A DNA stretch of 64,000 nt from Gammaproteobacteria bacterium (GCA_015491865.1 WFVD01000008.1:138002-202001), one strand, 5' to 3'; counted from the first letter of the stretch, positions 43,629-62,464 are shown. The notes: generated by a model from the letters alone, not told the origin. A program made the numbers and translations.

Positions 43629-44012
43629 ATGCTGGATAAAGAAAAAGCTATTTTAGTCGTCGATGATACGATGCTGATGCGTGAAGGGTTGCGCCGCGTG
43701 CTGGCCACCATGGGGTATGAAAATATAGTGCAGGCAGAGCATGGCAGGCAGGCACTTAAAATGATAGCAAGTGGCGAGCACGATATTGGCGTTGTGTTTC
43801 TAGATATCGTGATGCCGGTGATGGATGGTCAAGAGGCGTTGAAAACGATTCGTGAAACTGACAAGGAGCTACCAGTAGTGATGGTGACCTCCAGAGCGGA
43901 TAAGGAATCGATTGTTGCGTGCAGTAAACTTGGGATGAGTGGTTATATTTTAAAACCGATCAATGTGGCTGAAGGTGGTGCTGTACTTAAGGAGATTTTT
44001 GCCCGGCTTTAG
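43629..44012 (+). CDS. Single-domain response regulator (CheY-like receiver)
   Basis: The acidic pocket DD, the phospho-acceptor D in FLDIVMP, and T and K in VMVTS...KP are all present. Confidence 0.8.
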   Translation: MLDKEKAILVVDDTMLMREGLRRVLATMGYENIVQAEHGRQALKMIASGEHDIGVVFLDIVMPVMDGQEALKTIRETDKELPVVMVTSRADKESIVACSKLGMSGYILKPINVAEGGAVLKEIFARL

Positions 44013-44050
44013 CCGGCCTGTTAGGCCAGCCCCGGGCTGGAGTCTGTTAT

Positions 44051-45046
44051 CTAATCCCATACCAGCGGCGGCTCATCCATCAAGGCCGCCTGTTCGCGCA
44101 GAGCGAGTATATGTTCATCCCAGTAGCGCCCACCATTGAACCACGGGAACGCCTGTGGAAAGGCGGGGTCATTCCAGCGACGTGCAATCCATGCGGCGTA
44201 GTGCATCATCCTGAGTGTGCGCAGCGCCTCTAGCAGGCGCAGCTCTTTTGGGTCGAACTCGCGGAATTCAATATAGCCGTTTAAAAAGTCGGCGAGGCGA
44301 GCAGTCATATAGGGGCGGTCGCCAGAGAGAAACATCCAGATATCCTGTAGTGCAGGCCCCATACGTGCGTCATCAAAGTCAACGATATGTGGTCCGTTAT
44401 CACGCCATAAAACATTGCCGGGATGCATGTCACCATGCAGACGGATGATCTCGACATCACCGGCATTGGCGTAACAGATTCGCACACGTTTAATCAGCTC
44501 TTCGGCGAGCGAGCGGTAGGCATCGGTTAGTCCTTCGGGAACAAAGCCTTGCTCCAGAAGATACTGGTATGAATCGACGCCGAAGTTTTCGATGTTCAGG
44601 GTGGGGCGATATTTGAATGGATACGCCGCGCCCATGTTATGAATGCGCGCCATAAAGCGCCCCATCTGTTCCAGATGGTCGGGGTCATCCAGTTCCGGTG
44701 AGCGGCCGCCGCGGCGTAACGAGAGCGAAAATCGATAGCCGTTATGGCAGTGCAGGGTGGTGCCGTTGCTGTCTGCGATCGGCGCAACCACGGGTATCTC
44801 CAGATCGCTGAGCGCCTGGGTGAAGTGATGTTCTTCGATGATCGCTTCATCAGACCAGCGTGCCGGGCGGTAGAACTTGGCGATTAGCGGTTCATCATCT
44901 TCGATTCCGACCTGATAGACGCGGTTCTCATAACTGTTGAGCGCAAGAAACTGACCATTGCACAGATAGCCCAGACTCTCGACGGCATCAAGGATGGTGT
45001 CGGGGTCGAGCGCTGCGTACGATTCGTTTTCCTTGCTATCTGTCAT
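44051..45046 (-). CDS. srkA: Stress response Ser/Thr kinase SrkA (YihE)
   Basis: Collinear with YihE/SrkA (LNSYENRVYQV..., HGDMHPGNVLW, VDFDDARMGP). Confidence 0.85.
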   Translation of the reverse strand: MTDSKENESYAALDPDTILDAVESLGYLCNGQFLALNSYENRVYQVGIEDDEPLIAKFYRPARWSDEAIIEEHHFTQALSDLEIPVVAPIADSNGTTLHCHNGYRFSLSLRRGGRSPELDDPDHLEQMGRFMARIHNMGAAYPFKYRPTLNIENFGVDSYQYLLEQGFVPEGLTDAYRSLAEELIKRVRICYANAGDVEIIRLHGDMHPGNVLWRDNGPHIVDFDDARMGPALQDIWMFLSGDRPYMTARLADFLNGYIEFREFDPKELRLLEALRTLRMMHYAAWIARRWNDPAFPQAFPWFNGGRYWDEHILALREQAALMDEPPLVWD

Positions 45047-45058
45047 GAGAGAGCTGGT

Positions 45059-46942
45059 TTACGCCTCCAGTGCTTCCCAGCGTTGATAACAGCTGGTGAG
45101 CTCTGTCTCGATCTTGGCCAGCTGCTCGTTAGCTTTGGTAACGGCATCGCCCGCTTGCTGATAAAAGTCAGGGTCGCCCAGTTTTGCGATCCACTCCGAC
45201 TGCTCATGCTCTAACTGCTCAATCTTTTTTGGTAGCGCTTCAAGCTCGCGCTGATCTTTATAACTGAGTTTTTTTGCCTGTTCTTTCCTGGGTTTTGCAC
45301 TGCCTGCTGGTGGTTCTGTTTTTTTCGCTGTGGTGGCAGGTTTGGCATCTGCCTTCTGGCGCAGCCAGTCATCATAGCCACCGACATATTCATTGATCAC
45401 ACCATCGCCTTCAAATACCAGCGTGCTGGTGATGACATTGTTGATAAAGGCGCGGTCATGGCTGACGAGCAGCAGAGTCCCTTTGTAGTTAAGCAGTAAC
45501 TCCTCAAGTAGTTCGAGGGTCTCAACATCCAGGTCATTGGTCGGCTCATCCATCACCAGAAGGTTGGCCGGTTTCGTAAACAGCCGCGCCAGTAATAAGC
45601 GATTACGCTCACCACCGGAGAGCGCCTTTACCGGGGTGCGGGCGCGCTCAGGTGAAAAGAGAAAATCCTGCAGGTAGCTGATGATGTGGCGTTCAACACC
45701 GTTGATGGTGACCTTGTCGCTCCCCTGTGCGAGGTTGTCGATCACGCTCTTTGATTCATCGAGTACCGAGCGGTGCTGGTCAAAATAGGCAACTTCAATT
45801 TTAGTGCCGAGTTTAATGGTGCCCGACTTCGGTTGCTCTTCGCCCAGCAGCGCTTTTAACAGCGTGGTCTTACCTGCGCCATTGGGGCCGAGAATGCCGA
45901 TCTTGTCGCCGCGCAGAATCACCGTTGAAAAATCGCGGATGATGGTTCTGTCACCATAGCGTTGTGTGATGTGGTCTGCTTCAACCACCAGCTTGCCGGA
46001 GCGTTCGCCCCCCTGCAGCGCCATACGCACGCTGCCCATCTTTCTGCGTCGCTCGTTATGTTGGCGGCGCATCTCCTCAAGCGCACGTACACGCCCTTCG
46101 TTACGGGTGCGGCGTGCTTTGATCCCCTGTCGAATCCACACCTCTTCCTGCGCCAGCTTTTTATCGAACAGTGCATGCTCGGTCGCTTCGGCGTCGAGCG
46201 CCTCCTGTTTACGCTGCAGGTAGGTCTCATAGTTGCCGGGCCAGCTGGTGAGGCGGCCACGGTCCAGTTCGATGATGCGGGTGGCAAGCTTCCTGAGCAG
46301 TGCGCGATCATGTGTCACAAAGAGCAGTGTGCCGTCAAAGTCGAGCAGAAACTCTTCCAGCCAGCGGATCGCTTCGATGTCGAGGTGGTTGGTCGGCTCA
46401 TCCAGCATCAACAGGTCAGGCTTGTTGACCAGCGCTCGTGCCAGCAGGACGCGCCGCTTAAGTCCGCCGGAGAGCTCACTAAACTCCATTTCCGGGTCTA
46501 GCTGCATACGGGTCAGCGTGCTAGTCACTTTCTGGTCCACCTCCCAGCCGCCACTCTCTTCCAGTTTATGCTGTGCCTGTTCGAAGCGTTTCATTATTTT
46601 GTCACTGGTGTCATGAGCAAGCTCATGGCTGATGCGGTGGAACTCGGCAAGCAGCTTGCCGACTTCGCCAAGGCCATCGGCGACCACATCAAAGATGGTG
46701 CCAGTGAGATCACGTGGCACCTCCTGCGTCAGGCGGGTGATGTTGATACCCTGCCTGTAGACCACCTCACCTTCATCTGCCTTGATCTCAGCGGCGATCA
46801 GTTTCATCAGTGTAGACTTGCCAGTACCGTTGCGGCCGACGAGGCAGAGGCGTTCACCGCGCTCAATCTTGAGGTCGATATGTTCGAGTAGTGCCGGGCC
46901 GCCAAAGCCGAGGTTAACGGCGCGTAGGGTAATGAGTGCCAT
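45059..46942 (-). CDS. ABC-F family ATPase (Uup-like, two ABC domains plus a C-terminal coiled-coil domain)
   Basis: Two Walker A motifs (GRNGTGKST, GPNGAGKTT), two LSGG signatures and a C-terminal coiled coil. Confidence 0.85.
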   Translation of the reverse strand: MALITLRAVNLGFGGPALLEHIDLKIERGERLCLVGRNGTGKSTLMKLIAAEIKADEGEVVYRQGINITRLTQEVPRDLTGTIFDVVADGLGEVGKLLAEFHRISHELAHDTSDKIMKRFEQAQHKLEESGGWEVDQKVTSTLTRMQLDPEMEFSELSGGLKRRVLLARALVNKPDLLMLDEPTNHLDIEAIRWLEEFLLDFDGTLLFVTHDRALLRKLATRIIELDRGRLTSWPGNYETYLQRKQEALDAEATEHALFDKKLAQEEVWIRQGIKARRTRNEGRVRALEEMRRQHNERRRKMGSVRMALQGGERSGKLVVEADHITQRYGDRTIIRDFSTVILRGDKIGILGPNGAGKTTLLKALLGEEQPKSGTIKLGTKIEVAYFDQHRSVLDESKSVIDNLAQGSDKVTINGVERHIISYLQDFLFSPERARTPVKALSGGERNRLLLARLFTKPANLLVMDEPTNDLDVETLELLEELLLNYKGTLLLVSHDRAFINNVITSTLVFEGDGVINEYVGGYDDWLRQKADAKPATTAKKTEPPAGSAKPRKEQAKKLSYKDQRELEALPKKIEQLEHEQSEWIAKLGDPDFYQQAGDAVTKANEQLAKIETELTSCYQRWEALEA

Positions 46943-47084
46943 GGTTCAGGGTGATTCCATATTCGGTGTTGCGAAATTTGATGCCATTATTAATGACGAC
47001 GGGATTATCGCACATTGGGTGAGGTAAGCTGTGAGAAAGATCACCCCGGCCTGCAGAGCGAGGCCGAGGTGAGCGGTTGCGGGA

Positions 47085-48434
47085 TTAGCTGTTGGCTTCC
47101 GCCAGTTTTTTCTCCAGATAATGAATGTTAGTGCTGCCGCTCTGGAAGTGAGTGTCGTTCATAATATCGCGGTGCAGCGGGGTGTTGGTGGTGATCCCTT
47201 CGATCACCAGCTCGCCCAGTGCGGTACGCATGCGGTTGATCGCGGAAGTGCGTGAGTTGCCGTGGGTAATCAGTTTGCCGATCATTGAGTCGTAATAGGG
47301 CGGTACGGTGTAGCCGTTATAGAGATGGGTATCGACCCGCACACCGGGGCCGCCGGGCTGGTGGAACTGGGTGATTCTGCCGGGAGAGGGGGTGAACTTT
47401 TTTGGGTCTTCCGCATTGATGCGACATTCGATTGCGTGGCCTCGGAGTTTGATGTCGCTCTGCTGATAGGTCAGCTCTTCGCCGGAAGCGATGCGTAGCT
47501 GCTCTTTGACCAGGTCGACGCCGGTGACCATCTCCGTGACAGGGTGCTCTACCTGCAGGCGCGTATTCATCTCAATGAAATAGAACTTGCCATCTTCATA
47601 GAGGAACTCAAAGGTGCCGGCGCCGAGGTAGCCGATCTCACGGCAGGCGTTGGCGCACACTTCACCGATCTGGTTGCGCAGCTCTTCAGAGATGCCAGGA
47701 GCGGGTGCCTCTTCCACGACTTTTTGGTGGCGACGCTGCATGGAGCAGTCTCGCTCGCCGAGATGAATGGCGTTGCCATGAGAATCAGACAGCACCTGAA
47801 TCTCAATATGGCGCGGGTTCTCCAGAAATTTTTCCATGTAGAGGGTGTCGTTACCAAAGGCGCTACCCGCTTCGGCACGTGTTAGAGAGATGGCGTTATT
47901 GAGCGCAGCATCACTGTGTACCACGCGCATACCGCGGCCACCACCGCCACCGGCAGCCTTGATGATCACGGGGTAACCGATCTCGTTCGCAAGCTTGAGA
48001 TTTGTTTCGGCGTCATCGCCCAGTGGGCCGTCGGAGCCAGGTACACAGGGGACGCCGCTCTTTTTCATCGCCGTGATAGCGGAAATTTTATCGCCCATGG
48101 TGCGGATGGTGTCGGGGCGTGGGCCGATAAAGACAAAACCACTCTGCTCAACACGTTCTGCAAAATCTGCATTTTCCGATAAAAAGCCGTAGCCGGGGTG
48201 GATCGCAACGGCATCGGTAACTTCGGCCGCACTGATGATAGCCGGCACATTAAGGTAGCTTTCCATCGATGAGGGTGGCCCGATGCAGACAGACTCATCT
48301 GCCAGCCGGACATGTTTCAGGTCGCGGTCAGCCGACGAATGGGCGGCAACTGTTTTAATGCCCAGTTCACGGCAGGCACGCAGAATACGCAGTCCGATTT
48401 CGCCTCGATTGGCGATGACGATCTTTTCAAACAT
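47085..48434 (-). CDS. accC: Acetyl-CoA carboxylase biotin carboxylase subunit AccC
   Basis: [27 protein letters not shown]... Full-length and highly conserved. Confidence 0.95.
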
Positions 48435-48449
48435 GGCAGTTATTCCAAA

Positions 48450-48902
48450 TTATTCGACGGTGAAAAGGGTTTCGCCATATTCTACTGGCTGCCCGTTTTC
48501 AACCAGCACATCGACGATAACACCCGCTTTGTCAGCCTCTATCTGGTTCAGCATCTTCATCGCTTCGATGATGCAGAGGGTGTCGCCGATATTAACGCGC
48601 TGGCCCACCTCAACAAAAGGTTTTGCCCCGGGTGCCGCAGCGCGGTAGAAGGTGCCAACCATTGGCGCTGTAATTGGGTTTCCGTGGATAATGGCAGCTT
48701 CAGCTGTCTTGGTGGCAGGCTCAGCGACGACGACTGGGGGAGGCGCTGCCGCAGGAGGTGGCGCAACCATGGCGGGTTGTGAGGCAACCACCTGGCTGGT
48801 GCGGCTAATGCGGACCGATTCCTTGTCTTCATGAATCTCGATCTCGGCGAGATCAGACTCTTCCAGCAGTTCGATCAGTTTCTTTATTTTTCGTATATCC
48901 AT
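48450..48902 (-). CDS. accB: Biotin carboxyl carrier protein AccB
   Basis: C-terminal biotinyl domain with EAMKMLN. Pro/Ala-rich linker. Confidence 0.9.
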
Positions 48903-48939
48903 TTGGGCGCTCTATAAAATGTTTGTTTAATAATGATAT

Positions 48940-49383
48940 TTAGTCTGTTTCAAGCTGTTTGATAGCAGCCTGTAGTGCAAGTTCGTAGCCAATTGGTCCC
49001 AGCCCGCAGATCACGCCCTCGGCAATATCAGAGAAAAAGGAGTGATGCCTGAACGCTTCGCGCGCGTGGACGTTGGAGAGATGAATCTCAATAAACGGGA
49101 TGCGGGTGGCGCAAAGCGCATCCCGAATCGCAACACTGGTGTGGGTAAAGGCCGCAGGGTTGATGATGATAAAGGCGACATCCTCTTTTTTAGCAGCATG
49201 TAGCCGATCGACCAGCTCATGTTCTGCATTGCTCTGAAAGCTGGAGAGTTGGTGTCCGGCTCCCTGAGCGGCTTTTTCGAGGCGCTGGTTAATTGTGGCC
49301 AGCGTGTCGCTGCCGTAGTGGCCAGGTTCCCGTTCACCCAGCAGATTCAGGTTAGGGCCATTTAAAATGAGTAATTTAGCCAT
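48940..49383 (-). CDS. aroQ: Type II 3-dehydroquinate dehydratase AroQ
   Basis: [24 protein letters not shown].... Confidence 0.9.
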
Positions 49384-49565
49384 CAGCGTGGTTATTATCC
49401 GGTTAAATCCTGCTAAATCCCGTTAAGTTGCTTTCAACTGACGGTTATTAAACCTGTCAGCCGCCATGGCTTCTAATTTAGCACCATTTTATAGAATTTG
49501 TCTAGATTCGTGGAGATTACAACAAAATCGCAGAAGATCATGGGGGTTTAGCTGAGGGATGGTGT

Positions 49566-51014
49566 TTATGGCATGAGTGGGCGCAGCGTCAGTACTGCGG
49601 CTAGAATCAGTAGCGGAAAGACGAGGTTAAGGCGAAAACCGGCTTTAATCATCTCGCTCATTGAGACCCGTTCAGTACCAAAAACGATCGCATTGGGCGG
49701 CGTGGCTACCGGCATCATAAAGGCGCAGGAGGCCGCGAGCGTTGCGGTGAGCAGCAGCTGGGTGACATCGTGATCGCTGGCGATGGCAACCGCGGCCAGG
49801 ACCGGCAGCATCACCTGGGTGGTGGCGGTGTTGCTCGTCACCTCGGTGAGGAAGACGATCACCAGTGCAATACCGAGCAACATCAGTGGCAGCGGCACAG
49901 CGCTAAGAAACTGGAGTTGCTGCCCCACCCAGAATGAGAGGCCCGAGCTTTTCATCCCCATCGCGAGGGCAAAGCCGCCGCCGAGCAGCAGGATGATGTC
50001 CCACGGTAGACGGCCGATGGTCGATTTATCCATGATCGGTTTGCCGTTGCGGATCGGCACAAGAAACAGAATGAGTGCCGCGATGATCGCCACGGTGCCG
50101 TCATCGACCCCCTGGTAGGGTAGCAGCGAGGCCCAGCCGGGGATGTCGATCCCTTCACCCTGTATCCCCTTGCGTGTCATCCAGGCGACGGCGGTTATCC
50201 CTAGCACCCAGGCGACAAAGCGTTCATCACGGCGCATGGTGCCGAGGCTCTGCAGCTCGGCTGAGATCCCCTCAATCGCCGCGTTAGACCAGTTCAGGTT
50301 GCGCACGCGTCGCCCCAGATAGAGCACTACGACCGTGATACCTGCGATTACCACCGGAACGCCAACCATCATCCACTGAAGAAAGCTGGGCACATCATCA
50401 GGCGCTGCTGCCCGCATGTTTTCGAGGAAGACCAGGTTGGGCACCGTGCCGACTGGTGTCCCCATGCCGCCAATGTTGGCGCTATAGGCGATGGTTAGTA
50501 GCAGGGTGCTGGCCATCACCACCATCGTTTTACCATCGAATACCCTGTCGAGGCGGGTCAGTACGGCGATGGCGATGGTGGCCATCAGCATGGTGGTTGC
50601 GGTGTTGGAGATCCACATCGACAGAAAAGCGGTTGAGAGGGCAAAGCCCAGGAGTATCTGAAGCGGGCTGCCGTGCAGATGTGACAGAATGACGAGCGCA
50701 ATGCGTTGATGTAGCCCGGTGCGCTCCATTGCCTGCGCAATCAGAAAGCCGCCGATAAAGAGAAACATGATGCTGCCCATGTAGCGCGGCGCGGTCTCTT
50801 TGGCGGTGGCGATGCCCATGATGGGAAAGGCGATCAGTGGGATTAGCGCAGTAACGGCGAGCGGCACGCATTCACTGAGCCACCAGATCGCCATCCAGAT
50901 AACCACACCCAGCATCGATGCGGCGAGAGGGTGGCCGGGGATCTCGACAAAGACAGCGACCGACAGCCCCAGCAGTGGCCCAAGCAGGAGAGCGATCTGT
51001 TTAACGCGTATCAT
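49566..51014 (-). CDS. DASS/SLC13 family anion:sodium symporter
   Basis: 482-aa polytopic protein with the duplicated hairpin motifs typical of DASS (...SNTATT... occurs twice). Confidence 0.8.
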   Translation of the reverse strand: MIRVKQIALLLGPLLGLSVAVFVEIPGHPLAASMLGVVIWMAIWWLSECVPLAVTALIPLIAFPIMGIATAKETAPRYMGSIMFLFIGGFLIAQAMERTGLHQRIALVILSHLHGSPLQILLGFALSTAFLSMWISNTATTMLMATIAIAVLTRLDRVFDGKTMVVMASTLLLTIAYSANIGGMGTPVGTVPNLVFLENMRAAAPDDVPSFLQWMMVGVPVVIAGITVVVLYLGRRVRNLNWSNAAIEGISAELQSLGTMRRDERFVAWVLGITAVAWMTRKGIQGEGIDIPGWASLLPYQGVDDGTVAIIAALILFLVPIRNGKPIMDKSTIGRLPWDIILLLGGGFALAMGMKSSGLSFWVGQQLQFLSAVPLPLMLLGIALVIVFLTEVTSNTATTQVMLPVLAAVAIASDHDVTQLLLTATLAASCAFMMPVATPPNAIVFGTERVSMSEMIKAGFRLNLVFPLLILAAVLTLRPLMP

Positions 51015-51042
51015 ATTGCGCGGAGTCTGAAATTAAGCGGGA

Positions 51043-51483
51043 TTAATCGGTGCCCGCAATGCCTTCGGGAGCCTTCCAGCTATTAACCTTTTTAAATAAA
51101 AACTTAAGGTGTGGCCCATCGAATTTCTTATCGGTGTAGTACCAGAACTCGGAGGCACCGCTGCGGATCTTGAGCGGTTCACCAAGCAGATCACGCACAT
51201 CCTCATAATTCATGCCGACACGGAGGTGAATCCAGTTGGTTGGGTCGCTCCACTCACCGGGATTCGTCGGTGGCGGTAGTGAGCTTTTGGTTTTGATGAT
51301 GGTGGTGCGGGTCACCGTAGCCGGTTTTTTCTCAATGCTGTTGAGGCGCTGTTCCAGCTCATTGAGGCGCTGGGTGAGTTTATCGATCTGCATCTGCAGT
51401 GAACGGTCAGATGATGCCAGAGTGGGAGTGGTGAGCAACACGCTCGCCAGCAAGGCTGTGCCAAAATATGGGAATATTTTCAT
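51043..51483 (-). CDS. Secreted protein with an N-terminal coiled coil and a BamE/SmpA_OmlA-like C-terminal domain
   Basis: Signal peptide MKIFPYFGTALLASVLLTTPTLA from ATG 51483. C-terminal GMNYEDVRDLLGEPL...FWYY resembles the BamE fold motif. Confidence 0.5.
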   Translation of the reverse strand: MKIFPYFGTALLASVLLTTPTLASSDRSLQMQIDKLTQRLNELEQRLNSIEKKPATVTRTTIIKTKSSLPPPTNPGEWSDPTNWIHLRVGMNYEDVRDLLGEPLKIRSGASEFWYYTDKKFDGPHLKFLFKKVNSWKAPEGIAGTD

Positions 51484-51534
51484 CTGTCCAGCATAGTGAA
51501 ATCGTGTTGGGTGGTCAATCGGCATGCGGTGGTT

Positions 51535-51572
51535 TACAGTGTTCCGATACCCCACCATCGGAATGCTTGATA
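51535..51572 (+). CRISPR. Solitary CRISPR-repeat-like sequence; downstream arm of a 23-bp perfect inverted repeat (CCCCACCATCGGAATGCTTGATA) with imperfect extension
   Basis: Positions 51550-51572 are exactly reverse-complementary to 55168-55190. Similarity extends with indels to about 38 nt. It lies 3 nt from the stop of the cas1 stub. Only a single copy is present, so there is no array. Confidence 0.4.
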
Positions 51573-51575
51573 AAC

Positions 51576-51812
51576 TCACTTCGCTTGCAGCATCACTGAG
51601 CTAGGAGTAATCAGTACCGCTGCTCCGGCCTCAGCCAATATGCGTAATACGTTGACTGTCAGGCTGATGGTGTGGTGATGCAAACACAGTACGGCGATGT
51701 CAGCAGGTAGTACATGCGCGTCCTCATGATCCTGTCGTGCAATCCTGATGCGGCCCAAATCCACCGACAGGTGGGCGGGGTTTTCGATGAGAAGGATGCG
51801 GTTATCAGGCAT
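51576..51812 (-). pseudogene. cas1: cas1 5' fragment (first roughly 75 codons only)
   Basis: MPDNRILLIENPAHLSVDLGRIRIARQDHEDAHVLPADIAVLCLHHHTISLTVNVLRILAEAGAAVLI matches the conserved N-terminal beta-sandwich of Cas1. The start overlaps the cas9 stop (TAATG), as in type II-C operons. The ORF terminates after 78 codons, where Cas1 is normally about 300 aa. Confidence 0.6.
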
Positions 51813-54800
51813 TAGTCCACCAGTTTGAGGCGGGCAATACTTGTGCCGCCAACCACGCGCCGTCCCTGTTGTTTTTGCGACAGTTTGTGTTGTCTCATGG
51901 TTGCATCCATATCCGCGATTTCTCTCGCTTCCGTTATTGGAATGAGAAATATCTGCAGCCCCTGTTCTCTGAAGGATTTCACAATAAAGTGATCCCCGTC
52001 TTTTGTATCTTCCATCGTGTCACCCTTAAAAAATCGTCGGGTATTGGGTGGATTCGGTTGATCTTTCTTTTGCAGCGCCTCGGGTTGTGTAACCAGGCGG
52101 GGTTTCGGTTTCTCTCCAGGTGTTTCCGTTAATTCAAGATAAGCGTAACCATCGTATTGCAGGTATTTGTAGTGAGGCTTGTCAGGTGTGCTGTGGCGAC
52201 TATTGAATTCAATTTTCCAGGCGGTGTTTGCTGAGTCGCGCAACATTTTTACCTGCCGAATAACATTGCGATATCGGGGGTGCTGGATATTCGTTAATGC
52301 CTCTTTTGCAGTTTTTCCTGCTGCAATGCGTTTATCAAAAACACTTAGCACTAATCGGCGTGTGTCAGGACTGGCGATTTTCTCTAACTTTTTGCGCACA
52401 GCATCGGGTTTGCTTTTGTCGTCAGCCAGTGTTTCAAGATTCTGGCGCAGTGTAAGTTGCTGTTTGGGATCAGCATTGGGGTCTTTGTCATTTTCCACCC
52501 AGGTGACGCCATAAGCAGTGCCTTTGAACAATGACCCACCTATATGCCGCTCTGGTTTGTGGACGATGTGATGTTCACGTGTCATCTCAAGCGCCTGAGT
52601 ACGAATATCTTTTAATGGGGGATTGATGGAGAGTTTCAGTTTGATGTGTTGATCCGTTTGCGCACGTTCGCTTAAGGTCTTGTAATTGTGCGCCATCTTT
52701 TGATACAGGCCGCGGGAAGTGAGGGCGATGACTAATGCGTCAATGACGTGATGCCGATGGTCGATACGTTTTTCGATCATTTTGTCGGTGCGTTGAACGC
52801 CGCTGTGATTATTGTTGTGACCTTCCCAGTAGGGTTTGTATTTTTTAAATTCTTCTTCATTAATCAGGTTTTTTTCGGTATCAAAAACGGGCAGGCCAGA
52901 CTCGTAACGAATTTCCGGGATAACGGTATTTAGCCCCCATATTTTTCTCAGGTGCGCGGTCATTGCACCGCGGCTGACCGCAACATCGGAACAGACCGTA
53001 CGCATCCACTGTGCCGCCAGTTTGGAAATCCACGAGGTTTCGTGATACTGACGATTGGTGAAATCGTCGATGATGTCACTGTTGATTTTCTCTGCTTTCC
53101 AGTCTTGCAGGGTGAGAAAACGTGCTTTGGCAAAGCGTCGTTTCTTTTCCAGCGCTTTGGCTCGTTCGGTGATAATTTTCCATTTGTTAATGTCATCACC
53201 CCCGGCTTGCCAGGGGGTGCGGTTTCCCTTTTCATCATTACAGGAACGGTGTGATAGCATGAGGTGGTCTTGTTGGCGGCCAACGCGGGTGAGGGTACGC
53301 GGAATGATATGTTCCAGATTGGTTTCGTTGCCATCCACTGCTGCGCCGAGACTGATCCTTCGTTCACAGTAGGGGCAATTGGTATCCTGTTCCTGCCACA
53401 GCCGCCAGCGGAAGATATTAGTGGAGGTTGCGGGATGGCTGTTTTTCTCCAGGTCTTCCCTGGCCTTTTTGCGTTCGCGTTGATTTTTATCTATGCCTTT
53501 TTCAATTTCACCGCGGCGTTTTAATCCCAACCCCATGTCACGACTAAGCTCGATGACCACTTCCGCAGGTGGCTCGCCACCCATGGCATCAATAGCATTG
53601 TTGACGGCGTAGCGCATTTGGCGCAGGGCAACATCAACCACGATGTTGCCGGTAGGTCAATGGGAATCAAGATGTGTGGATAGTTCAGCTTTTTCTTCAG
53701 GTTTTGGATGACAGGCTAAGATGGCGTCGTATTCATCCATGCCTCCGCGCATTTTTTCCGTGAGTTTTTTAATGCCTTGATGGAATAGGCGCTACGTCCA
53801 CTATCGAATCCCATTTTACTGAGGCGGTCAAATTTGCCGCTGGTAACCATGGCGTTAATGAAGTTCACCATGTCAGGAGAAAATTTACGTAATTCCCCAG
53901 GTTTTCCATCTTTGCCTTTACCGCGATACTGGAGATGCCAGTCTTTACGATCCACTTCCTGTGGTGACCCCAGGTCAGCAAGAAAGTTGATGATGCTGAT
54001 TTGTGTGCCTTCGTTGAGTGCCAGCCATTGTTCGGCAAGCCCTAATTTTCCCACCGCTTTCAGAGTGCTGTTGCCTTTGAGTTCAGGTCGGCTGGGCCGG
54101 TCAAAATTAAGTCCGCGTTTGTCTGGATTTGGGCAGCCTGCTTTATTTAGTGCCGTGTTAATTTGCAAGAAAGTTGCTTTCTCTTTTGTCGAGAGCAACT
54201 TGCGGATAACGGTTTTTTGCTCTGGTGTAAGTTGTTGGGAACGACGCCCCATGCCCCAACGCAAATCGGCAATCTGTTTTTCAATGCGAAACGCTTGTGC
54301 GGCGGGTTGACTCATGGGGGCCCGCGGCAGATTGGGTTCCAATGGACATTGCCCCACCATCGCAGTAACGGATTTCAGTGGCCGCTGGTAAAAGATAACG
54401 TCGCGGAAAACCTCTTTGAGTGGATTGTCTTTGTATCGCTCATTCAGGCCTTCGTATAGCCCATTCAGAATTGAATGAGTCACTGACTGCACTTTCCAGA
54501 TTTGTTCAAACTCGGCTTCCACCATTTCCCGGCTGACGTACAGGCCATGGGGTTTTGCTTCTTTCAGCTTGAGGGTTTCGCCGTTGTTGAAACGGTGCAG
54601 CAGGTATTGCCCAAGCCACTCACCATTCGCATCCTGCATTAGTTGTTTGAGCTGAGTGATGCCGCCTTCAACCTGGCCTTCATCGCCTTCTTTACTTAAC
54701 CTGAAAGCCTCCCGCATAACCACGCCGTTTGGACATTCGAAAAAATACCCTGGCCAGATCATCCAGCGCAATGGGTTTTGTGGTTGCTTGGCTGCGGGCC

Positions 54801-55105
54801 TCATGAAGACGTCGGCCGTTATCAGGGGTGATAGTCTGAGGGTCAATGTCGAGTAGTTCACAGATGGCCGCAAGATCATGTAAACGGCTGGCGCGGCGGT
54901 CGATCAGTCGTCGGGTACGTCGGGCCATGCCCCGGCCAGATGCCTTGGTGCTACCAATACCACCTCCGGTAGCAGCTTCTACCGGCTCCTGAAAGATATG
55001 CGCGCTGTGATAGGCGATATTTTCGGGCGTGGATTCGTTGTCCAGTGTGATACAGGCAAGACCAACCGATGCGGTGCCAAAATCAATCCCCAGTCGATAA
55101 GGCAT
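51812..55105 (-). pseudogene. cas9: Type II-C cas9, full-length footprint (about 1098 codons) but disrupted by two frameshifts and one in-frame TGA
   Basis: Three collinear ORF fragments. Fragment 55105-54692 carries RuvC-I (YRLGIDFGTASVGLA), the Arg-rich bridge helix (ARRTRRLIDRRASRL) and the RGY motif. Fragment 54879-53716 is the REC lobe. Fragment 53641-51812 carries RuvC-II (VVIELSRD), HNH (CPYCERR...LEHIIP...SCNDEKGNRTP), RuvC-III (HRHHVIDALVIA) and the PI domain. See findings for the exact lesions. Confidence 0.8.
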
Positions 55106-55167
55106 TTTTTCTCTCCATGATTTATTGTGCTTGCCATTACACCACATGGTTGCTAGGGTTTTCCTGT

Positions 55168-55251
55168 ATCAAGCATTCCGATGGTGGGGACTATCGGTAA
55201 CAAGTGTTTATCACACCGATACAGAACGGCTGCTTCGGCAGTCGTTTTTTT
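55168..55251 (+). ncRNA. Candidate tracrRNA: anti-repeat (upstream arm of the inverted repeat), then a linker and a strong intrinsic terminator
   Basis: 55168-55190 is the reverse complement of 51550-51572 (extended pairing to about 55208). The terminator at 55226-55251 has an 8-bp stem ACGGCTGC/GCAGTCGT with a UUCG tetraloop followed by T7. It lies 63 nt upstream of cas9 and is divergent from it. Confidence 0.45.
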
Positions 55252-56234
55252 ATGATTGAATATTGTGTACACCGCTTGCCGAATCAAGTTCTTTCATTGA
55301 TTTTAGGGAGTCTGATTCTGCGTGCAAATGTGTTTTTCAGCGTTGTGCTGGGTGGAATCTTTAGCTAGAATCCGGTCTGTTTGTTAATAAGTGGATTCAA
55401 TGCTTTTTACAACATACAAGGCGGCAGATGCTCTCCTGGTGGCAATCAAGCCGACCTGATGACCTTCCCATTCCATGCGGATATATTTTCCTACGAAACA
55501 CCAGTTGAATTTTGTTGTCTGAGATACCGCTAGGCGGTGAGGGGCATCGATGAGATTATCGACCCTTCTTTGAATAAATACCGGTAAACAGTCGCTAAAA
55601 AATGATGGCGTGCCAGGATGGCAGAAGGCAATTTGATGCGGTTATTTTAGGGCTGCCTTATACTGCAATTCATTGGTAGCAGATCTGGTGGTGAAATATG
55701 GGCGAGCTATATTGATCTCACCGATTGCTCTGAACCGATTTTGAAATACGAGTATGAACGGCAGTTAAATACCCATCTAAGTTAGTCAATAATAACCATA
55801 TAAAAAGTAGTTGATTTATAGTGGGTGATCCTCTAGACTCTTTATCGCACGACAGACATTCCATGCATCTCCTCCTCTCTCGGGGTCGAGTGATTCGGCC
55901 CCGGGCGGTGCAAGGGATGGTGATTGACCGGCACTCCCGGCTGTGATGAGCATCAGGTTATTGGTTATGGATTATCGATGCCTGGGCTTTACCCCCCCTG
56001 CGCAGCCGGGATGTGTCAAATTTCTACGGTTAACTATAAAACACTAATCCCCGCCTGTATTTTTGTTGCCTTCCCTCTTTGTGAGCAATGCGCGATGGAC
56101 TGGAGCGCCAGGTTCTTCAGGGCGGCAACCTCGACGTGAGATGAATCAATGAGTTAAGTGATGATGTCGCTGCTTCACGCCTCGTCATGAGAATAAATCA
56201 GAGGTTGCTTAGTAACGTAGCTGACGCTCAGATG

Positions 56235-56268
56235 AAAAAAAACGCCACTCTGAAATCAGAGTGGCGTT
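56235..56268 (-). terminator. Rho-independent terminator of prk
   Basis: On the minus strand a 10-12-bp perfect stem (ACGCCACTCTGA / TCAGAGTGGCGT) is followed by U8. Confidence 0.65.
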
Positions 56269-56311
56269 TGAGCAGATCACATTAAAACACTCGCCTGAAA
56301 AGCGGTGGCTA

Positions 56312-57181
56312 TTATGCGCTGCGTTTATTTTCCATCAGTTCATGCACCACTGGATTGAGGATGACCTCCATTGCCAGTCCCATTTTGCCGCCAGGCAGTA
56401 CGATGGTGTTGGGGCGAGACATCCACGAATCTTTTAGCATCGAGAGGTAGTAGGGGAGGTCGTGTTTCTCTGGGTGTCTGAAGCGGATCACGATCAGGCT
56501 CTCATCAGGTGTTGGAATATCACGTGAAATAAAAGGGTTAGAGGTATCCACCACGGGCACGCGCTGGAAGTTAATATCGGTGCGCGAGAACTGAGGGGTG
56601 ATGGTTTTAACATAGTCAGGCATGCGACGCAGGATTGTATCGGTGACCGCTTCTGCCGAGTAGCCGCGCTGTGCGGTATCACGGTGAATCTTCTGAATCC
56701 ACTCCAGATTAACAATAGGCACCACGCCGACGAGCAGGTCAACCCACCTGGCGACATCCACCTCTTCGGTGACGACGCCGCCGTGCAGCCCTTCATAAAA
56801 AAGGATATCACTACCTTCAGGGACCGGTTCCCACGGGGTGAAGGTGCCTGGCTCCTGTTTGTAAGGGGCGGCTTCGACTTCATCATGCAGGTATTTACGC
56901 ATCTGACCGGTGCCGGTTTCGCCATAGCTCCTGAAGAGCTCTTCAAGCTTGTCGAGAATATTGGCTTCAGGGCCAAAATGGCTCAGGTCTTTACCCTCTT
57001 TCGCCGCTTCAGCAACTTTTGCCTTCATTTCCATGCGATCATAGCGATGGAACGCATCGCCTTCGATTACGGCGGCGTTGATCCCTTCGCGATGGAACAT
57101 ATGCTGGAAGGCGTTTTTTACGGTAGTGGTGCCAGCACCTGATGAGCCGGTCACGACAACGACTGGATGTTTAGCAGACAT
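56312..57181 (-). CDS. prk: Phosphoribulokinase
   Basis: P-loop VVVTGSSGAGTTT and a PRK family body (...EGDAFHRYDR...). Confidence 0.9.
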   Translation of the reverse strand: MSAKHPVVVVTGSSGAGTTTVKNAFQHMFHREGINAAVIEGDAFHRYDRMEMKAKVAEAAKEGKDLSHFGPEANILDKLEELFRSYGETGTGQMRKYLHDEVEAAPYKQEPGTFTPWEPVPEGSDILFYEGLHGGVVTEEVDVARWVDLLVGVVPIVNLEWIQKIHRDTAQRGYSAEAVTDTILRRMPDYVKTITPQFSRTDINFQRVPVVDTSNPFISRDIPTPDESLIVIRFRHPEKHDLPYYLSMLKDSWMSRPNTIVLPGGKMGLAMEVILNPVVHELMENKRSA

Positions 57182-57529
57182 GTAGGTTCTCCCTTAAAGG
57201 TTATAAAGACTTTATAAATCTGTGGCTTAAAGTCACGGGTGCATGTTTGTTTCTAGTTTTTTGCAGGGCACCCGCAAGCGAAATTCTTATCGTTGTACCC
57301 GCGTAGCGCTCCTTTAAAGAGCAGATGCTACTGGATGCGTTTTTGTTATCACCGTGCGCGGGTAGCCGTGTATTGAAGCAAACGTGAGTGGATGTGGCAA
57401 GTTTTGGGGAGAAACGGGGTGAGATTGACCCCTTGCGCAGTCTCTTCAGGGAGGCTTCAAGCGCTTGTTTTGATACAAAATGAATGAGATGATCTGGCCA
57501 GGTGGTGATGTTTTAAATTTGTCGAAGGG

Positions 57530-58078
57530 GTGTTCCTGAAAATGATGATAAGGATGGGTGTTGCGGCTCTGATGCTGTTGCAGGTTCTGGCGCTTGCTGG
57601 ATGCACTTCGATCGACTCGAGGCACTCATTGATTCAAAAAGGCTCTGGTAACTACGCCGCTGTCTATTTTATTCGCCCCGATACTGAGCGCTATATGGGG
57701 GCTACCGACAACCGCATCACGATAGAACTGAACCGGGAAGAGCTACTGAAGCTGGTCAAATCAGAGTACACACTGGTACATCTGAAGCCAGGAGAGGTGG
57801 ATTTAACCATTAAATCATTGACGATTGCCGGCCCATTTCGCCAGTTCAAGGATATGGAGCGGACCAAACGTTTCGACTTCAGGGCTGGTGCTACCTATTA
57901 TATTTCGATTGAGCCGGTGGATGGCGAATTTCGTGGCACCTATTTTCAGCCGCATCTGGTTGGGCTGGCAGCGGCAAAAGAGATGAGTCGTTTTCTGCGT
58001 GCAACAGGCCCCGCACGGCAGGCACCACTTCACCCATCGGGCGAGAACCCGCGCGTCCCTTTTCTGCCTTTTATCTAA
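57530..58078 (+). CDS. Hypothetical lipoprotein
   Basis: Lipobox LALAGC after a hydrophobic signal segment. No family recognised. Confidence 0.5.
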   Translation: MFLKMMIRMGVAALMLLQVLALAGCTSIDSRHSLIQKGSGNYAAVYFIRPDTERYMGATDNRITIELNREELLKLVKSEYTLVHLKPGEVDLTIKSLTIAGPFRQFKDMERTKRFDFRAGATYYISIEPVDGEFRGTYFQPHLVGLAAAKEMSRFLRATGPARQAPLHPSGENPRVPFLPFI

Positions 58079-58120
58079 TTCTGTCGTGAAGCAGGCGGTG
58101 ACGTTATCGGGTGCAGCTGG

Positions 58121-58804
58121 ATGCATCTAGTCATTCTTCTATTGCTCCTTCTCGCGCTGCTGTTTGGTCCGCAGCTCTGGGCGCGATCGGTGCTCTCTCG
58201 TCACAGCAAGCCGCAGGATCACTTCCCCGGTAATGGCGAAGCGTTTGCGCGACACCTGCTCAATAGGGCGGGGCTGGAAAAGGTAGCGGTTGAGCAGACG
58301 GCGCTCGGTGATCACTACGATCCGGCCGATCGCTGCGTGCGCCTTAGTGAGGCTAACTTCACTGGCAAGTCACTCACCGCCGTTGCGGTTGCGGCCCATG
58401 AAGTGGGCCATGCGATTCAGCACCGCGACGACGACCCCAGGCTGGCGCTGCGTGCCAGGCTGGTGAAGGTCGCTCAGGTGACGGAGAAGATGGGGTCAAT
58501 GGCGATGTTTGCAGTGCCGGTGCTGGTCGGTTTTACGCGTGCACCGTCGGTGGGGGTGTTGATGTTTGTGGTTGGTCTGATTAGCCTTGGTGTTTCTGCG
58601 CTGGTGCATCTGGTGACGCTGCCGGTGGAGTGGGATGCCAGCTTCGGCAAGGCGATGCCGATGATTAAGGCAGGGCAGTACCTGACACAGGCCGAAGAGC
58701 TGGTAGCGAAAAAGATCCTGCGTGCCTGCGCACTCACCTATCTGGCTGCGTCGTTATCGAGCCTGCTCAATATCTGGCGCTGGATACGTTTCATCCGTCG
58801 CTGA
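58121..58804 (+). CDS. Membrane zinc metallopeptidase (HExxH, Zn_peptidase_2/PF04298-like)
   Basis: AAHEVGHAIQH motif. There is an N-terminal TM helix, and C-terminal TM helices and an amphipathic tail. About 227 aa, as in the family. Confidence 0.7.
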   Translation: MHLVILLLLLLALLFGPQLWARSVLSRHSKPQDHFPGNGEAFARHLLNRAGLEKVAVEQTALGDHYDPADRCVRLSEANFTGKSLTAVAVAAHEVGHAIQHRDDDPRLALRARLVKVAQVTEKMGSMAMFAVPVLVGFTRAPSVGVLMFVVGLISLGVSALVHLVTLPVEWDASFGKAMPMIKAGQYLTQAEELVAKKILRACALTYLAASLSSLLNIWRWIRFIRR

Positions 58805-58973
58805 ACCAGTTGCTGAACAAGGCAGTGTTGATAACTCTTAGAAGACAAAAGGCCCTTTCTGATTTATATTTCCATTTATACGAATAATAATATCGGTTGA
58901 CGATGAGGCTGGGGGAGATGGGGGAGAATCTTGCTAAGGAGCGGCGCGTGAAAGCGCGACAGACGGTGCTGGT

Positions 58974-59987
58974 ATGAAACATCATCCCTATCGCACGTTA
59001 CTGCTGTGGGCCATCTGGGCAGCGACAGCGACGGGTGTCTACTTCGGTTTCTACCAGGAGGCTGGCATCTGGGATTTTCTTGCCCAGGATAAAACACGCA
59101 TTACCTGGATCATCCTGGCTTTTTTTGTTTTTGGTCTCGTTGCCAGCTTTGAACTGAGTGTGGTGCTCACCAAAGAGTCGCTGGCGGCTCGCCGTATTGA
59201 GAGTGAAGTCAAAGATAAAGGGCTGATCGGCCTGCAGAGCCGCTCCGAGAAGCGCGCCGTGAACCGTTTTTTTCTATCACTAAAGATGGCGATGGAAGGA
59301 AACAGCAAGCCCGATACCGAAGCGCTGTTGCATGTCGAACTCGCCGGATACCAGCGCATGGGGCGCTCAATTGAGGTGGCGGGCAATCTGCTGATCACCC
59401 TGGGTCTGATCGGAACCGTGATGGGCTTAACGCTGACACTGACTGGCCTGACCAGTTCGCTTGATGCGCTTGGTCACGACCAGGAACAGCTGTTACAGGG
59501 GTTGCGTAAGGCGATGGGTGGGATGGGCACCGCTTTTTACACCACATTGCTGGGTGCCATTCTTGGCGGTGTCCTGTTGCGAGTGTTTGCCCAGATCGCC
59601 GAGCAGGGGGTGGAGGCGTTATATGACCGCATCATGCGCATCTGCCTGATTTACTGCTCGGCCGACTTTAAGCCGTCACTGGAGCGCGACATCCGTTTTC
59701 TCGATGCTGAAATGGCTTCGCTGGGTGAGCGGGTCAAGTTTCTGCAATCGGCCTTTACTGCATCACGTGGTGCGATGGAAGAGTTTCGTCAGGAAGTTGG
59801 TAATTTGCGTAGCCTGTCGCAGGAAGAACGCACCGCGCTGCTAGAGACAATCGAGATGAACCGGCAGGCCTACATGTTGATGCGACAGGAGACGCGCTTG
59901 ATGAAAAATCTTAATCGCACCTTCTGGCAGCGGTGCAAAGATGTGCTGCGCTTTAAGCCGCGCCGCACTCGCCCCCCTGAAGAGTAA
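58974..59987 (+). CDS. MotA/TolQ/ExbB family proton-channel protein with a roughly 130-aa cytoplasmic coiled-coil tail
   Basis: Family core LITLGLIGTVMGLTLTL...GMGTAFYTTLLGAILGGVLLRVFAQI. There are two N-terminal TM helices, a cytoplasmic loop, then a TM3-TM4 hairpin. Confidence 0.7.
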   Translation: MKHHPYRTLLLWAIWAATATGVYFGFYQEAGIWDFLAQDKTRITWIILAFFVFGLVASFELSVVLTKESLAARRIESEVKDKGLIGLQSRSEKRAVNRFFLSLKMAMEGNSKPDTEALLHVELAGYQRMGRSIEVAGNLLITLGLIGTVMGLTLTLTGLTSSLDALGHDQEQLLQGLRKAMGGMGTAFYTTLLGAILGGVLLRVFAQIAEQGVEALYDRIMRICLIYCSADFKPSLERDIRFLDAEMASLGERVKFLQSAFTASRGAMEEFRQEVGNLRSLSQEERTALLETIEMNRQAYMLMRQETRLMKNLNRTFWQRCKDVLRFKPRRTRPPEE

Positions 59988-60005
59988 CTACGCACTTTTG
60001 CTACC

Positions 60006-60788
60006 GTGAAAGATAGACGTAAGTTTACCTATACCAACGTCCATGAGAGTTTCTCGGATGTTGCGTTGCTGATGCTCGCCACCTTTATTTTTCTGCTGGT
60101 CACCATTCTGATCACCTCAAAAGTGGCTGAGGAAGATCAGCTACCCCGGCTAAAAGAGCAGGTGGCAAAGCTTGAAAAGCAGCTTGAATTGTCGGGTGCC
60201 GATAAAGCGCGCCTGATAGGCGAGCTTGATGAGATGGCGATTATGGATTCCGAAAGCCAGATGGATAAAATCCTCGAGCCGGCCGGGTTGGCTGAAGGGG
60301 AAGGGCGAAAAGATTTTGAGATCTTTATCGAAGGGTTAAAGAAAATTCCCGGCAAAGAGATCCACCTCGTTATCGATGCCACTGGCTCGATGCACGGCGC
60401 CTCCCACTTTCTGATTCCAGTGCTGCGTGTGATTGTCACCCGCTCGGGAAAAAACCTGGATGCGGTTACCTGGTTTTCAGATGGCATTGCAAAAACCTAT
60501 ACCGGCTCAATGGGTGAAATGTTCGACATGCTGATGCAGGGGGCACCATTCGTCGGCAACAATGAGACCATTGGTGACGCCTTCCGTCGCGCGGCAAAGA
60601 ACACCCGCGCACCGGGGGCCTATCTGTTGATTGGTGATGAGCCTTCGGATGACCAGATCTTCTATTCTCGCATTAAAAGCCCTGTCTTTACTCTGCCGCT
60701 GGGGCGTTCAAACCCACCGACACTGGCGGAGTATAAGACCTTGTCTGAGAAAACGGGTGGATTGATGTTGCAGATGCGCTTTGAGTAG
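60006..60788 (+). CDS. ExbD/TolR/MotB-like single-pass membrane protein fused to a coiled coil and a vWA (MIDAS) domain
   Basis: GTG start 19 nt after the MotA-like gene. The N-terminal 20 residues are followed by a TM helix with an Asp at its cytoplasmic edge (SDVALLMLATFIFLL, compare the TolR/ExbD LLDVLLVLL). Then comes a coiled coil, and HLVIDATGSM, which is MIDAS-like DxSxS. Confidence 0.55.
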   Translation: MKDRRKFTYTNVHESFSDVALLMLATFIFLLVTILITSKVAEEDQLPRLKEQVAKLEKQLELSGADKARLIGELDEMAIMDSESQMDKILEPAGLAEGEGRKDFEIFIEGLKKIPGKEIHLVIDATGSMHGASHFLIPVLRVIVTRSGKNLDAVTWFSDGIAKTYTGSMGEMFDMLMQGAPFVGNNETIGDAFRRAAKNTRAPGAYLLIGDEPSDDQIFYSRIKSPVFTLPLGRSNPPTLAEYKTLSEKTGGLMLQMRFE

Positions 60789-61909: not shown

Positions 61910-62464
61910 GTGGACAGGATCCTTCTACGGTTTATTGAGATTTGTCGCCTAAAGGCAGGTCCTCAGGACTTACCGGCTTCAACGTTGCTGATGGCGATAG
62001 CGCTGCTGGCCTATGGTGCGATCGCGCTGATGCTCACGGTCGGTGAAAAAGGGCCAGGCACTGCCATTCAGGTGGCCCTTGTTGATACCCTGCTACTGGC
62101 GGGGCTAACTTATATTGTACTGTGGGTGCTCGATTTAACCATACGTTATGTACAGATGGTGACGGCAATGGCCGGTGCCTGTGCGTTGATGGAGTTGCTG
62201 CTGTGGCCACTGTTGATGCTACAGCAGTATGGTGTCGATGGTGGCGGTACTTTTTTTATTGTTATCGCAACGGTGCTGTTGTGGTTGTGGTTGATCTGGG
62301 AGGTAGCGATCATCGCCAACATCTTCAAACATGGGCTTGACACCTCTATCTGGATGGCGCTGCTGATCTCATTTTTCTATATCTTTCTCTCATACCGTGT
62401 GATGCGTACACTCTTTTTTAGCCCGGAGGTGGCGGAAGTCGCGGCGGCGGTACCTGTTACCTGA
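61910..62464 (+). CDS. Hypothetical polytopic membrane protein
   Basis: 184 aa with 4-5 hydrophobic helices. No family recognised. Confidence 0.45.
   Translation: MDRILLRFIEICRLKAGPQDLPASTLLMAIALLAYGAIALMLTVGEKGPGTAIQVALVDTLLLAGLTYIVLWVLDLTIRYVQMVTAMAGACALMELLLWPLLMLQQYGVDGGGTFFIVIATVLLWLWLIWEVAIIANIFKHGLDTSIWMALLISFFYIFLSYRVMRTLFFSPEVAEVAAAVPVT

Follow-up and report, generated by a model that had tools for sequence, protein, structure and literature searches.

A conserved two-gene unit of uncultured Gammaproteobacteria pairs a MotA/TolQ/ExbB-type channel subunit with a predicted trans-pore-helix vWA protein

Flagella, nutrient import, the maintenance of the outer membrane, gliding and phage defence all run on ion-driven 5:2 motors, which differ in what is attached to their B subunit or to the tail of their A subunit. 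Here we analyse a 64,000-nt stretch of a Gammaproteobacteria bacterium genome (GCA_015491865.1, WFVD01000008.1:138002-202001; in the following the window), in which four open reading frames (ORFs), genes 1 to 4, lie close together on the same strand. Genes 3 and 4 encode a channel subunit of the MotA/TolQ/ExbB family and a protein combining an Asp-bearing transmembrane helix, a coiled coil and a vWA domain, and we consider it probable (roughly 0.7) that these two genes stand on their own and encode an ion-driven motor in the manner of MotAB, ExbBD and TolQR, with a vWA head and a housekeeping role in the cell envelope. The closest described systems come from a recent paper (PMC12204202; Mol Biol Evol 2025;42:msaf138, section 8, Fig. 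4c-d) that predicted vWA proteins with a TolR/ExbD-like trans-pore helix and a conserved Asp. Their genes, in an analysis seeded from Idiomarina, are tightly linked to tolQ-like genes without tolR/exbD and occur predominantly, though not universally, in heterologous pairs, and AlphaFold3 models place the vWA helices inside a TolQ-like pentamer with a Thr ring, the prediction being drawn from sequence and models (PMC12204202). A full-text literature search found no other paper on such systems. A first-pass annotation of the window, made from the sequence alone, had called the arrangement of genes 1 to 4 an undescribed system, a claim overtaken by the published prediction of trans-pore-helix vWA proteins alongside tolQ-like genes; all four ORFs and the motifs it listed (HExxH, the Asp of SDVALLML, and DATGSM) are present, with correct coordinates.

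Gene 3 (58974..59987, + strand) encodes a protein of 337 aa, the predicted pentameric A subunit, as judged from its PF01618 match, its fold and its linkage to gene 4. It matches PF01618 (MotA_ExbB) with 31.9 bits, above the gathering score of 22.9, and has 629 homologue clusters, with PF01618 being carried by 119 of the 120 listed. When its AlphaFold2 model (predicted local distance difference test score, pLDDT, 76.2) was compared with the PDB by Foldseek, the best 46 matches were all ExbB, TolQ, MotA, PomA or ZorA, with a target-normalised template modelling score (TM-score) of up to 0.60; the fold is that of the A subunit of 5:2 motors. Three strongly hydrophobic helices are accompanied by a weaker fourth one at the N-terminus (residues 8-27), giving a three- or four-helix topology. 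The pore-lining helices (residues 136-210, GNLLITLGLIGTVMGLTLTLTGLT ... GTAFYTTLLGAILGGVLLRVF; 59379..59603, + strand) are conserved better than any other part of the protein (91% mean column identity). In an alignment of 28 sequences the helices GNLLITLGLIGTVMGLTLTLTGLT and GTAFYTTLLGAILGG were nearly invariant, and T148 (59415-59417), T190 and T191 (the latter at 59544-59546) were invariant. GLIGT148V aligns with the GxxGT motif of MotA and ZorA, and T191 was aligned with TolQ T178 and ExbB T181 by hhalign, in comparisons with single E. coli sequences that reached a probability of <4%. In known A subunits the conserved pore-helix threonines are T145/T178 (TolQ) and T148/T181 (ExbB).

About 127 residues follow the last transmembrane helix of gene 3, and most of them belong to a predicted cytoplasmic coiled-coil tail (residues 236-337; 59679..59984, + strand) that is recognised as a long helix with heptad periodicity. 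Residues 236-314 were modelled by AlphaFold2 as a single long helix, and a heptad test gave 16 hydrophobic a/d positions compared with 9.8 ± 1.1 in shuffled sequences, a value reached by 0 of 2000 shuffles. The MotA/TolQ/ExbB core with a coiled-coil tail of ~130 aa that had been proposed for gene 3 is thus borne out. Between membrane and tail, directly after the last transmembrane helix, an invariant Cys224 and an invariant Asp231 (residues 224-231 at window positions 59643-59666) lie in a conserved ICLVYCSAD segment, where the tail starts out from a site that could serve regulation or metal binding.

Gene 4 (60006..60788, + strand), whose product of 260 aa is the predicted dimeric B subunit, starts 18 nt past the stop codon of gene 3, so that the close spacing noted in the first-pass annotation holds and only its figure of 19 nt has to be corrected. 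The window protein had no match in Pfam, NCBIfam or PADLOC, and its 708 homologue clusters are unnamed or labelled hypothetical, all named sources being metagenome-assembled genomes (MAGs) of Gammaproteobacteria. The homologue clusters of genes 3 and 4 span identities of 50-97%, and their numbers, ~630-710 for each gene, argue that both are real genes and not chance ORFs.

A basic N-terminus with four K/R residues, which implies an N-in, C-out orientation, precedes the only transmembrane helix of gene 4 (HESFSDVALLML...), the predicted trans-pore helix (residues 14-38, ESFSDVALLMLATFIFLLVTILITS; 60045..60119, + strand), which contains the SDVALLML motif with Asp18 (60057-60059). In a 24-member alignment the segment ESFSDvALLMLATFIFLLV was almost invariant, the stalk following it was variable and the C-terminal domain was conserved. 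With 94% mean column identity the helix is the most conserved part of the protein, and in a larger set of 141 members Asp18 was found in 135 of the 136 that cover this position. The stalk, predicted to be periplasmic (residues 39-116; 60120..60353, + strand), consists of a coiled coil up to residue ~79, an invariant Pro47 and two short conserved helices (KDFxxFxxGLxxxPG). The AlphaFold2 model (mean pLDDT 76.8) accordingly shows helices at residues 12-79, 82-93 and 98-113 and then an alpha/beta domain, and the stalk is heptad-periodic in a shuffle test (p ~0.0015). Its sequence varies (57% identity), while the total length of gene 4 is constant, at 256-263 aa in most members.

The C-terminal domain (residues 117-260; 60354..60785, + strand) has the fold of a vWA domain and, by sequence, carries a complete metal-ion-dependent adhesion site (MIDAS) composed of D124-x-T126-x-S128 (60375-60389; part of DATGSM, residues 124-129), T188 and D211. 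The best 30 Foldseek matches of the gene 4 model in the PDB were all vWA domains, the best of them with an E-value of 4.6e-05 and a target-normalised TM-score of ~0.55. They include VWF A2, NorD, the Entamoeba Gal/GalNAc lectin, CMG2/ANTXR and TFIIH p44/Ssl1 as well as the mussel byssal protein PTMP1, a T. brucei flagellar doublet chain, Sec23 and Ro60. Read as DxTxS...T...D, the residues of the putative MIDAS are almost invariant in the 141 members, with D124, T126 and S128 in 141 each, T188 in 139 and D211 in 140. No OmpA-like or ExbD/TolR-type periplasmic domain was found in gene 4, its C-terminal domain being the vWA fold. PDB sequence searches with gene 4, its family profile and its N-terminal 45 residues returned coiled-coil noise only, the sole relevant match being ZorB (8vvi_A) at a non-significant E-value of 0.59. 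The label 'cell division protein FtsL' attached to some gene 4 homologues by the Joint Genome Institute was rejected, as it reflects only the similarity of a transmembrane helix followed by a coiled coil.

We fetched 80 genomic loci with gene 4 relatives, neighbour counts being restricted to loci with enough flank. Gene 3 was located directly upstream of gene 4 in 69/69 loci, with a gap of <=70 nt in 76 of 78 pairs, and the identities of the two proteins to their window counterparts co-varied across loci (r = 0.97). Gene 4 was present as a single copy in the window and in all 80 loci. The stator-type A/B pair with a vWA/MIDAS domain on the B subunit, as suggested by the first-pass annotation, is therefore well supported: the Asp is conserved in orthologues, the vWA fold was recovered by Foldseek and the two genes co-occur. 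No homologue of tolR, exbD or motB was detected in the window or among the conserved neighbours of the pair. In the MAG UBA5122 the pair was seen in two copies (L032, L065) in different contexts, with 61% and 56% identity to gene 4 of the window, which are either paralogues or the product of a mixed bin.

All carriers found are uncultured Gammaproteobacteria, sampled from groundwater, sediment or vents. When 1.84 billion representative proteins were searched with a profile, only 29 hits (50% identity representatives) came up, mostly fragments of the gene 4 family, which is therefore narrow and sharply bounded; the published family was not reached in this way. A homologue search with a widened profile led to the same family again (692 clusters, of which the best 120 were listed). 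At shared loci the mean identity was 65% for gene 4 and 68% for the core enzyme Mpl, mem184 and/or mpl were found downstream of gene 4 in 20/41 loci, and no gene 4 relatives were found on plasmids, phages or viral contigs. The window family is thus a narrow, slowly evolving chromosomal branch in MAGs of Gammaproteobacteria, and a housekeeping envelope function is most likely because the chromosomal position of the pair is stable and its evolution as slow as that of a core enzyme. We rejected the conserved neighbours as a guide to a partner, as they are housekeeping genes that vary by subclade (prk, fructosamine kinase, mpl, hemE, transaldolase, cytochromes and ubiX).

Distant relatives of gene 4 link the pair to the published systems. 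Two of them, P0148 and P0124, keep the Asp helix, and each is encoded after a MotA_ExbB gene. A metagenome scan seeded with P0148 gave 20 loci. In 8 of these a MotA-like gene (~243-288 aa) is followed by two tandem paralogous vWA proteins (305 and 312 aa), this count including contigs that start too late for the MotA-like gene and on which the second vWA gene directly follows the first. In another 6 the contig ends after one vWA gene or is short and holds a vWA gene alone, 5 (L097-L099, L102, L108) have the flank and no second vWA copy as judged by a 90-aa ORF and BLAST filter, and the last one (L110) gave a remote vWA match only. The two paralogues begin ...FYE[ST]FSDLIFATMAIF and ...FYEFFSDIIFATMAIF, respectively. 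This two-vWA family has Pfam matches to VWA_2 in 15/18 and to VWA in 7/18 members (best 6.3e-7), and weakly to MotB_plug in 8/18. Aligned by hhalign, gene 4 matched it with a probability of 97.9% (E 4.5e-13) over 189 columns that include ESFSD and the MIDAS motif, and gene 3 matched its MotA-like partners with 99.4% (E 2e-21) over gene 3 residues 9-229. The partners end at the position aligned to residue 229, and the tail of gene 3 is therefore specific to the window family.

The metagenomic two-vWA family is presumably the one described in PMC12204202, given the layout common to both, and the gene 3/gene 4 pair appears from its sequence to be a single-vWA, tailed variant of the motor class predicted there. 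As in the motors predicted there, a MotA/TolQ-like gene is tightly linked to an Asp-helix vWA protein without tolR/exbD, and the metagenomic family to which genes 3 and 4 are both homologous has the layout given in the paper, one MotA-like gene and two vWA genes. In contrast to the mostly heterologous pairs of the paper, the window family has one vWA gene only, implying a homodimeric axle, and its vWA domain is smaller and lacks a Pfam vWA match. Unlike the A subunits of the two-vWA family, that of the window carries the extra coiled-coil tail of ~100 residues.

Two observations from the scans concern the variety of such proteins. The metagenomic contig of locus L082 (491-4635) carries two tandem motor-like pairs, one of a 250-aa MotA-like gene and P0124, a vWA protein 40% identical to gene 4, the other of a 469-aa MotA-like gene and a 260-aa protein that has an Asp-bearing helix (RDTMSTVV) and a coiled coil and no detectable vWA similarity; this suggests that channels of the gene 3 clade are combined with B subunits bearing several kinds of head. 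In P0146 and P0147 (loci L089 and L090, short contigs) the place of the Asp helix is taken by a LysM-like segment (YTIKRGDTL..., HTVRRGDDL...), to which the same vWA subtype is fused.

The pair shares some features with the known motors and differs from them in others. Like TolQR and ExbBD, it has conserved Thr residues on both pore helices and an N-in B-subunit helix with D-V-x-L (cf. TolR LDVLLVLL, ExbD IDVMLVLL), and ExbB and TolQ are the best structural matches of gene 3. However, gene 4 lacks the TolR/ExbD periplasmic domain, comparisons with the E. coli proteins gave no significant sequence match, the effector domain is on the B subunit itself in place of a separate TolA/TonB transducer, and gene 3 has an additional N-terminal hydrophobic helix as well as the C-terminal tail. 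With MotAB/PomAB the pair has in common the closely spaced A-then-B gene order, a GxxGTVMG motif in gene 3 and MotA, the FSD...M.A.F of gene 4, which resembles YAD...M.A.F of MotB and comes with the sub-threshold MotB_plug similarity detailed below, and possibly four helices in the A subunit, but it lacks an OmpA-type peptidoglycan-binding domain, a MotA-type torque-generating loop and nearby flagellar genes. ZorAB, too, is distantly related to MotAB and has an A subunit that ends in a cytoplasmic coiled coil, and ZorA provides the best, though weak, sequence matches of gene 3, whereas the scores are far under the ZorA thresholds, the tail is short, the ZorB peptidoglycan-binding domain and ZorC-G are lacking, and the context is chromosomal housekeeping and not a mobile or defence island.

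The domain identities, the conserved residues, the strict linkage and the homology to the two-vWA family were all observed for genes 3 and 4, and by analogy to the known motors a mode of action can be proposed. A pentamer of gene 3 would enclose a dimer of gene 4, with the gene 4 helix inside the pore of the pentamer, so that Asp18 could be protonated and deprotonated opposite Thr148 and Thr190/191 of gene 3, and proton flow would rotate pentamer and dimer relative to one another. The coiled-coil stalk of fixed length would extend gene 4 into the periplasm and end in two vWA heads, each of which, with its MIDAS intact, might bind an acidic residue of an envelope partner via a metal ion. Once the heads are latched, the motor could pull the envelope partner, like TolA and TonB, or the axle could be held while the pentamer and its cytoplasmic tail turn, like flagellar stators and ZorA. 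The stalk has ~42 helical residues beyond the membrane, corresponding to ~60 Å, and since it is no longer than this the vWA heads are suggested to act near the peptidoglycan layer or on an inward-reaching partner and not directly at the outer membrane.

Several results weigh against this proposal. Without help the stalk would probably not span the distance to the outer membrane, which weakens a simple TonB-like version. The window protein of gene 4 had no match to PF02472 (ExbD) or PF13677 (MotB_plug), and its family members reached these models at sub-threshold level only (MotB_plug in 9/24, best E 0.0028; ExbD in 5/24, best 0.014). Pfam vWA models did not match gene 4 either, and none was among the 25 families most often matched by 24 members. 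Aligned by hhalign with single E. coli TolR, ExbD and MotB sequences, the gene 4 profile gave no significant match, the Asp being one helical turn off; across the family profiles and single E. coli TolR, ExbD, MotB, TolQ, ExbB and MotA the probabilities were <4%, single-sequence templates being too weak for such comparisons. A conserved third gene that might hint at a ligand or an output partner was not found, as beyond genes 3 and 4 no ORF family occurred in more than ~30% of 81 loci, and all members of the gene 3/gene 4 family come from MAGs. Finally, the 5:2 stoichiometry is assumed from the known motors, and proton coupling, a vWA domain that lies in the periplasm and a ligand for it would likewise follow from this analogy.

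The analogy also leaves room for a passive function, in which gene 4 would simply provide a vWA scaffold or adhesin, anchored in the membrane and facing the periplasm, while gene 3 would be a degenerate member of the channel family that acts as its chaperone or anchor and is not moved by ions. That the gene 4 helix resembles ExbD and MotB only below threshold would fit such a protein, as would the fact that ion flow and rotation are deduced by analogy. However, conservation in the two proteins peaks at the membrane Asp and at the pore helices that carry the Thr residues, which makes a passive anchor hard to sustain, and the vWA-domain relatives that lack the Asp helix, namely P0140 and the two LysM-like fusions (P0146, P0147), do not adjoin a MotA-like gene as far as their contigs show; we regard this explanation as unlikely. 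Still less probable is that the pair belongs to a Zorya-like anti-phage system whose motor senses envelope perturbation at infection and signals via the gene 3 tail; the first-pass annotation had named defence as one possible role. The tail itself is a hallmark of ZorA, ZorA models score best for gene 3 in both NCBIfam and PADLOC, and the sequence in the PDB that matches it best is likewise from ZorA (chain 8vvn_C), but the score against ZorA_2 was 25.3 bits with a cut-off of 100, the PADLOC ZorA models gave <=27.7 bits, and the tail of ~100 residues compares with several hundred in ZorA. Gene 4 matched no ZorB model in PADLOC and lacks a peptidoglycan-binding domain, nothing of the ZorC-G type turned up when genes 1-4 were scanned with PADLOC, and the two flanking genes that were compared with Pfam encode housekeeping enzymes, a phosphoribulokinase and a fructosamine kinase. 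Together with the fixed chromosomal position beside housekeeping genes, a conservation on par with Mpl and the absence of relatives from mobile elements, this renders a defence role of the pair unlikely.

An equally improbable extension of the pair is the four-gene envelope module of the first-pass annotation, in which the lipoprotein encoded by gene 1 might serve as, for instance, a ligand of the vWA domain and the Zn-metallopeptidase encoded by gene 2 as, for example, a processing enzyme. Gene 1 (57530..58078, + strand) encodes a DUF2846-like lipoprotein with the lipobox LALAGC and Cys25, its Pfam match being borderline (34.4 bits, cut-off 34.3), and gene 2 (58121..58804, + strand) a membrane Zn-metallopeptidase with an HEVGH motif that matches PF04298 (Zn_peptidase_2) with an E-value of 3.5e-64. 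The common strand and close spacing of the four genes speak for a module, their arrangement is kept in the nearest relatives (L002-L007), and a lipoprotein partner is conceivable in view of another small lipoprotein, whose gene closely follows gene 4 in 17 loci of other subclades. Nevertheless, gene 2 was found near gene 4 in only 6/60 and gene 1 in only 7/60 loci, all but one occurrence being in the closest relatives (>=90% gene 4 identity), no other family accompanies genes 3 and 4 widely, and an AT-rich spacer of 169 nt (58805..58973, + strand) separates genes 2 and 3. The module is thus largely refuted by synteny, and genes 1 and 2 lie outside the conserved unit. The spacer contains two promoter-like sites (58842-58870 and 58863-58891), which are merely suggestive because a promoter and terminator scan found such sites to be no more numerous there than in shuffled sequence.

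Further genes recur around the pair. A 184-aa multi-pass membrane protein without a Pfam match is encoded directly upstream of mpl in the window (61910-62464, + strand) and downstream of the pair in 24 related loci. A polytopic membrane protein of 496 aa, also without a Pfam match, is encoded on the same strand ~130 nt downstream of gene 4 in 21 related loci (e.g. L029:8868-10358), and the small lipoprotein of the 17 other loci has ~146 aa and a weak DUF4019 match and is encoded on the opposite strand; neither of these two is present in the window.

Elsewhere in the window, a type II cas9 at 51812-55147 (- strand) is split into three ORFs, which encode the N-terminal RuvC-I piece (54692-55147, - strand), the alpha-helical lobe (53716-54879, - strand) and HNH with RuvC-III (51812-53641, - strand). 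No repeat array was found within 44000-57600 and no Rfam hit in the window, and the nearest relatives have no such gene at the syntenic loci; the split cas9 thus looks like an orphan in decay that is particular to this lineage, or possibly reflects assembly frameshifts. Downstream of prk, the non-coding stretches 55627-55724 and 55755-56041, which have no Rfam match, are 72-85% conserved in L002-L005 and L007, and in the relatives with both pieces (L002-L004 and L007) they are ~2.3 kb further apart than in the window.

vWA-bearing axles are a recent prediction, and the window family represents a minimal version of them, strongly conserved and made up of one A and one B gene. The key residues of the pair, Asp18, Thr148, Thr191 and the five MIDAS residues, are all identifiable, which makes it useful for structural and genetic work. 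We tentatively propose, as a possibility that we ourselves hold to be rather doubtful, that the pair is a housekeeping machine in which a homodimeric MIDAS-vWA axle gripping an envelope component is joined to a Zorya-like pentameric tail that turns or signals in the cytoplasm, two features not seen together before. If true, this would provide a direct mechanical or signalling link from a periplasmic binding event to the cytoplasm, distinct from the Tol, Ton, flagellar, gliding and Zorya systems. The tail of gene 3 suggests that the output of the motor may be directed to the cytoplasm as well as to the envelope.

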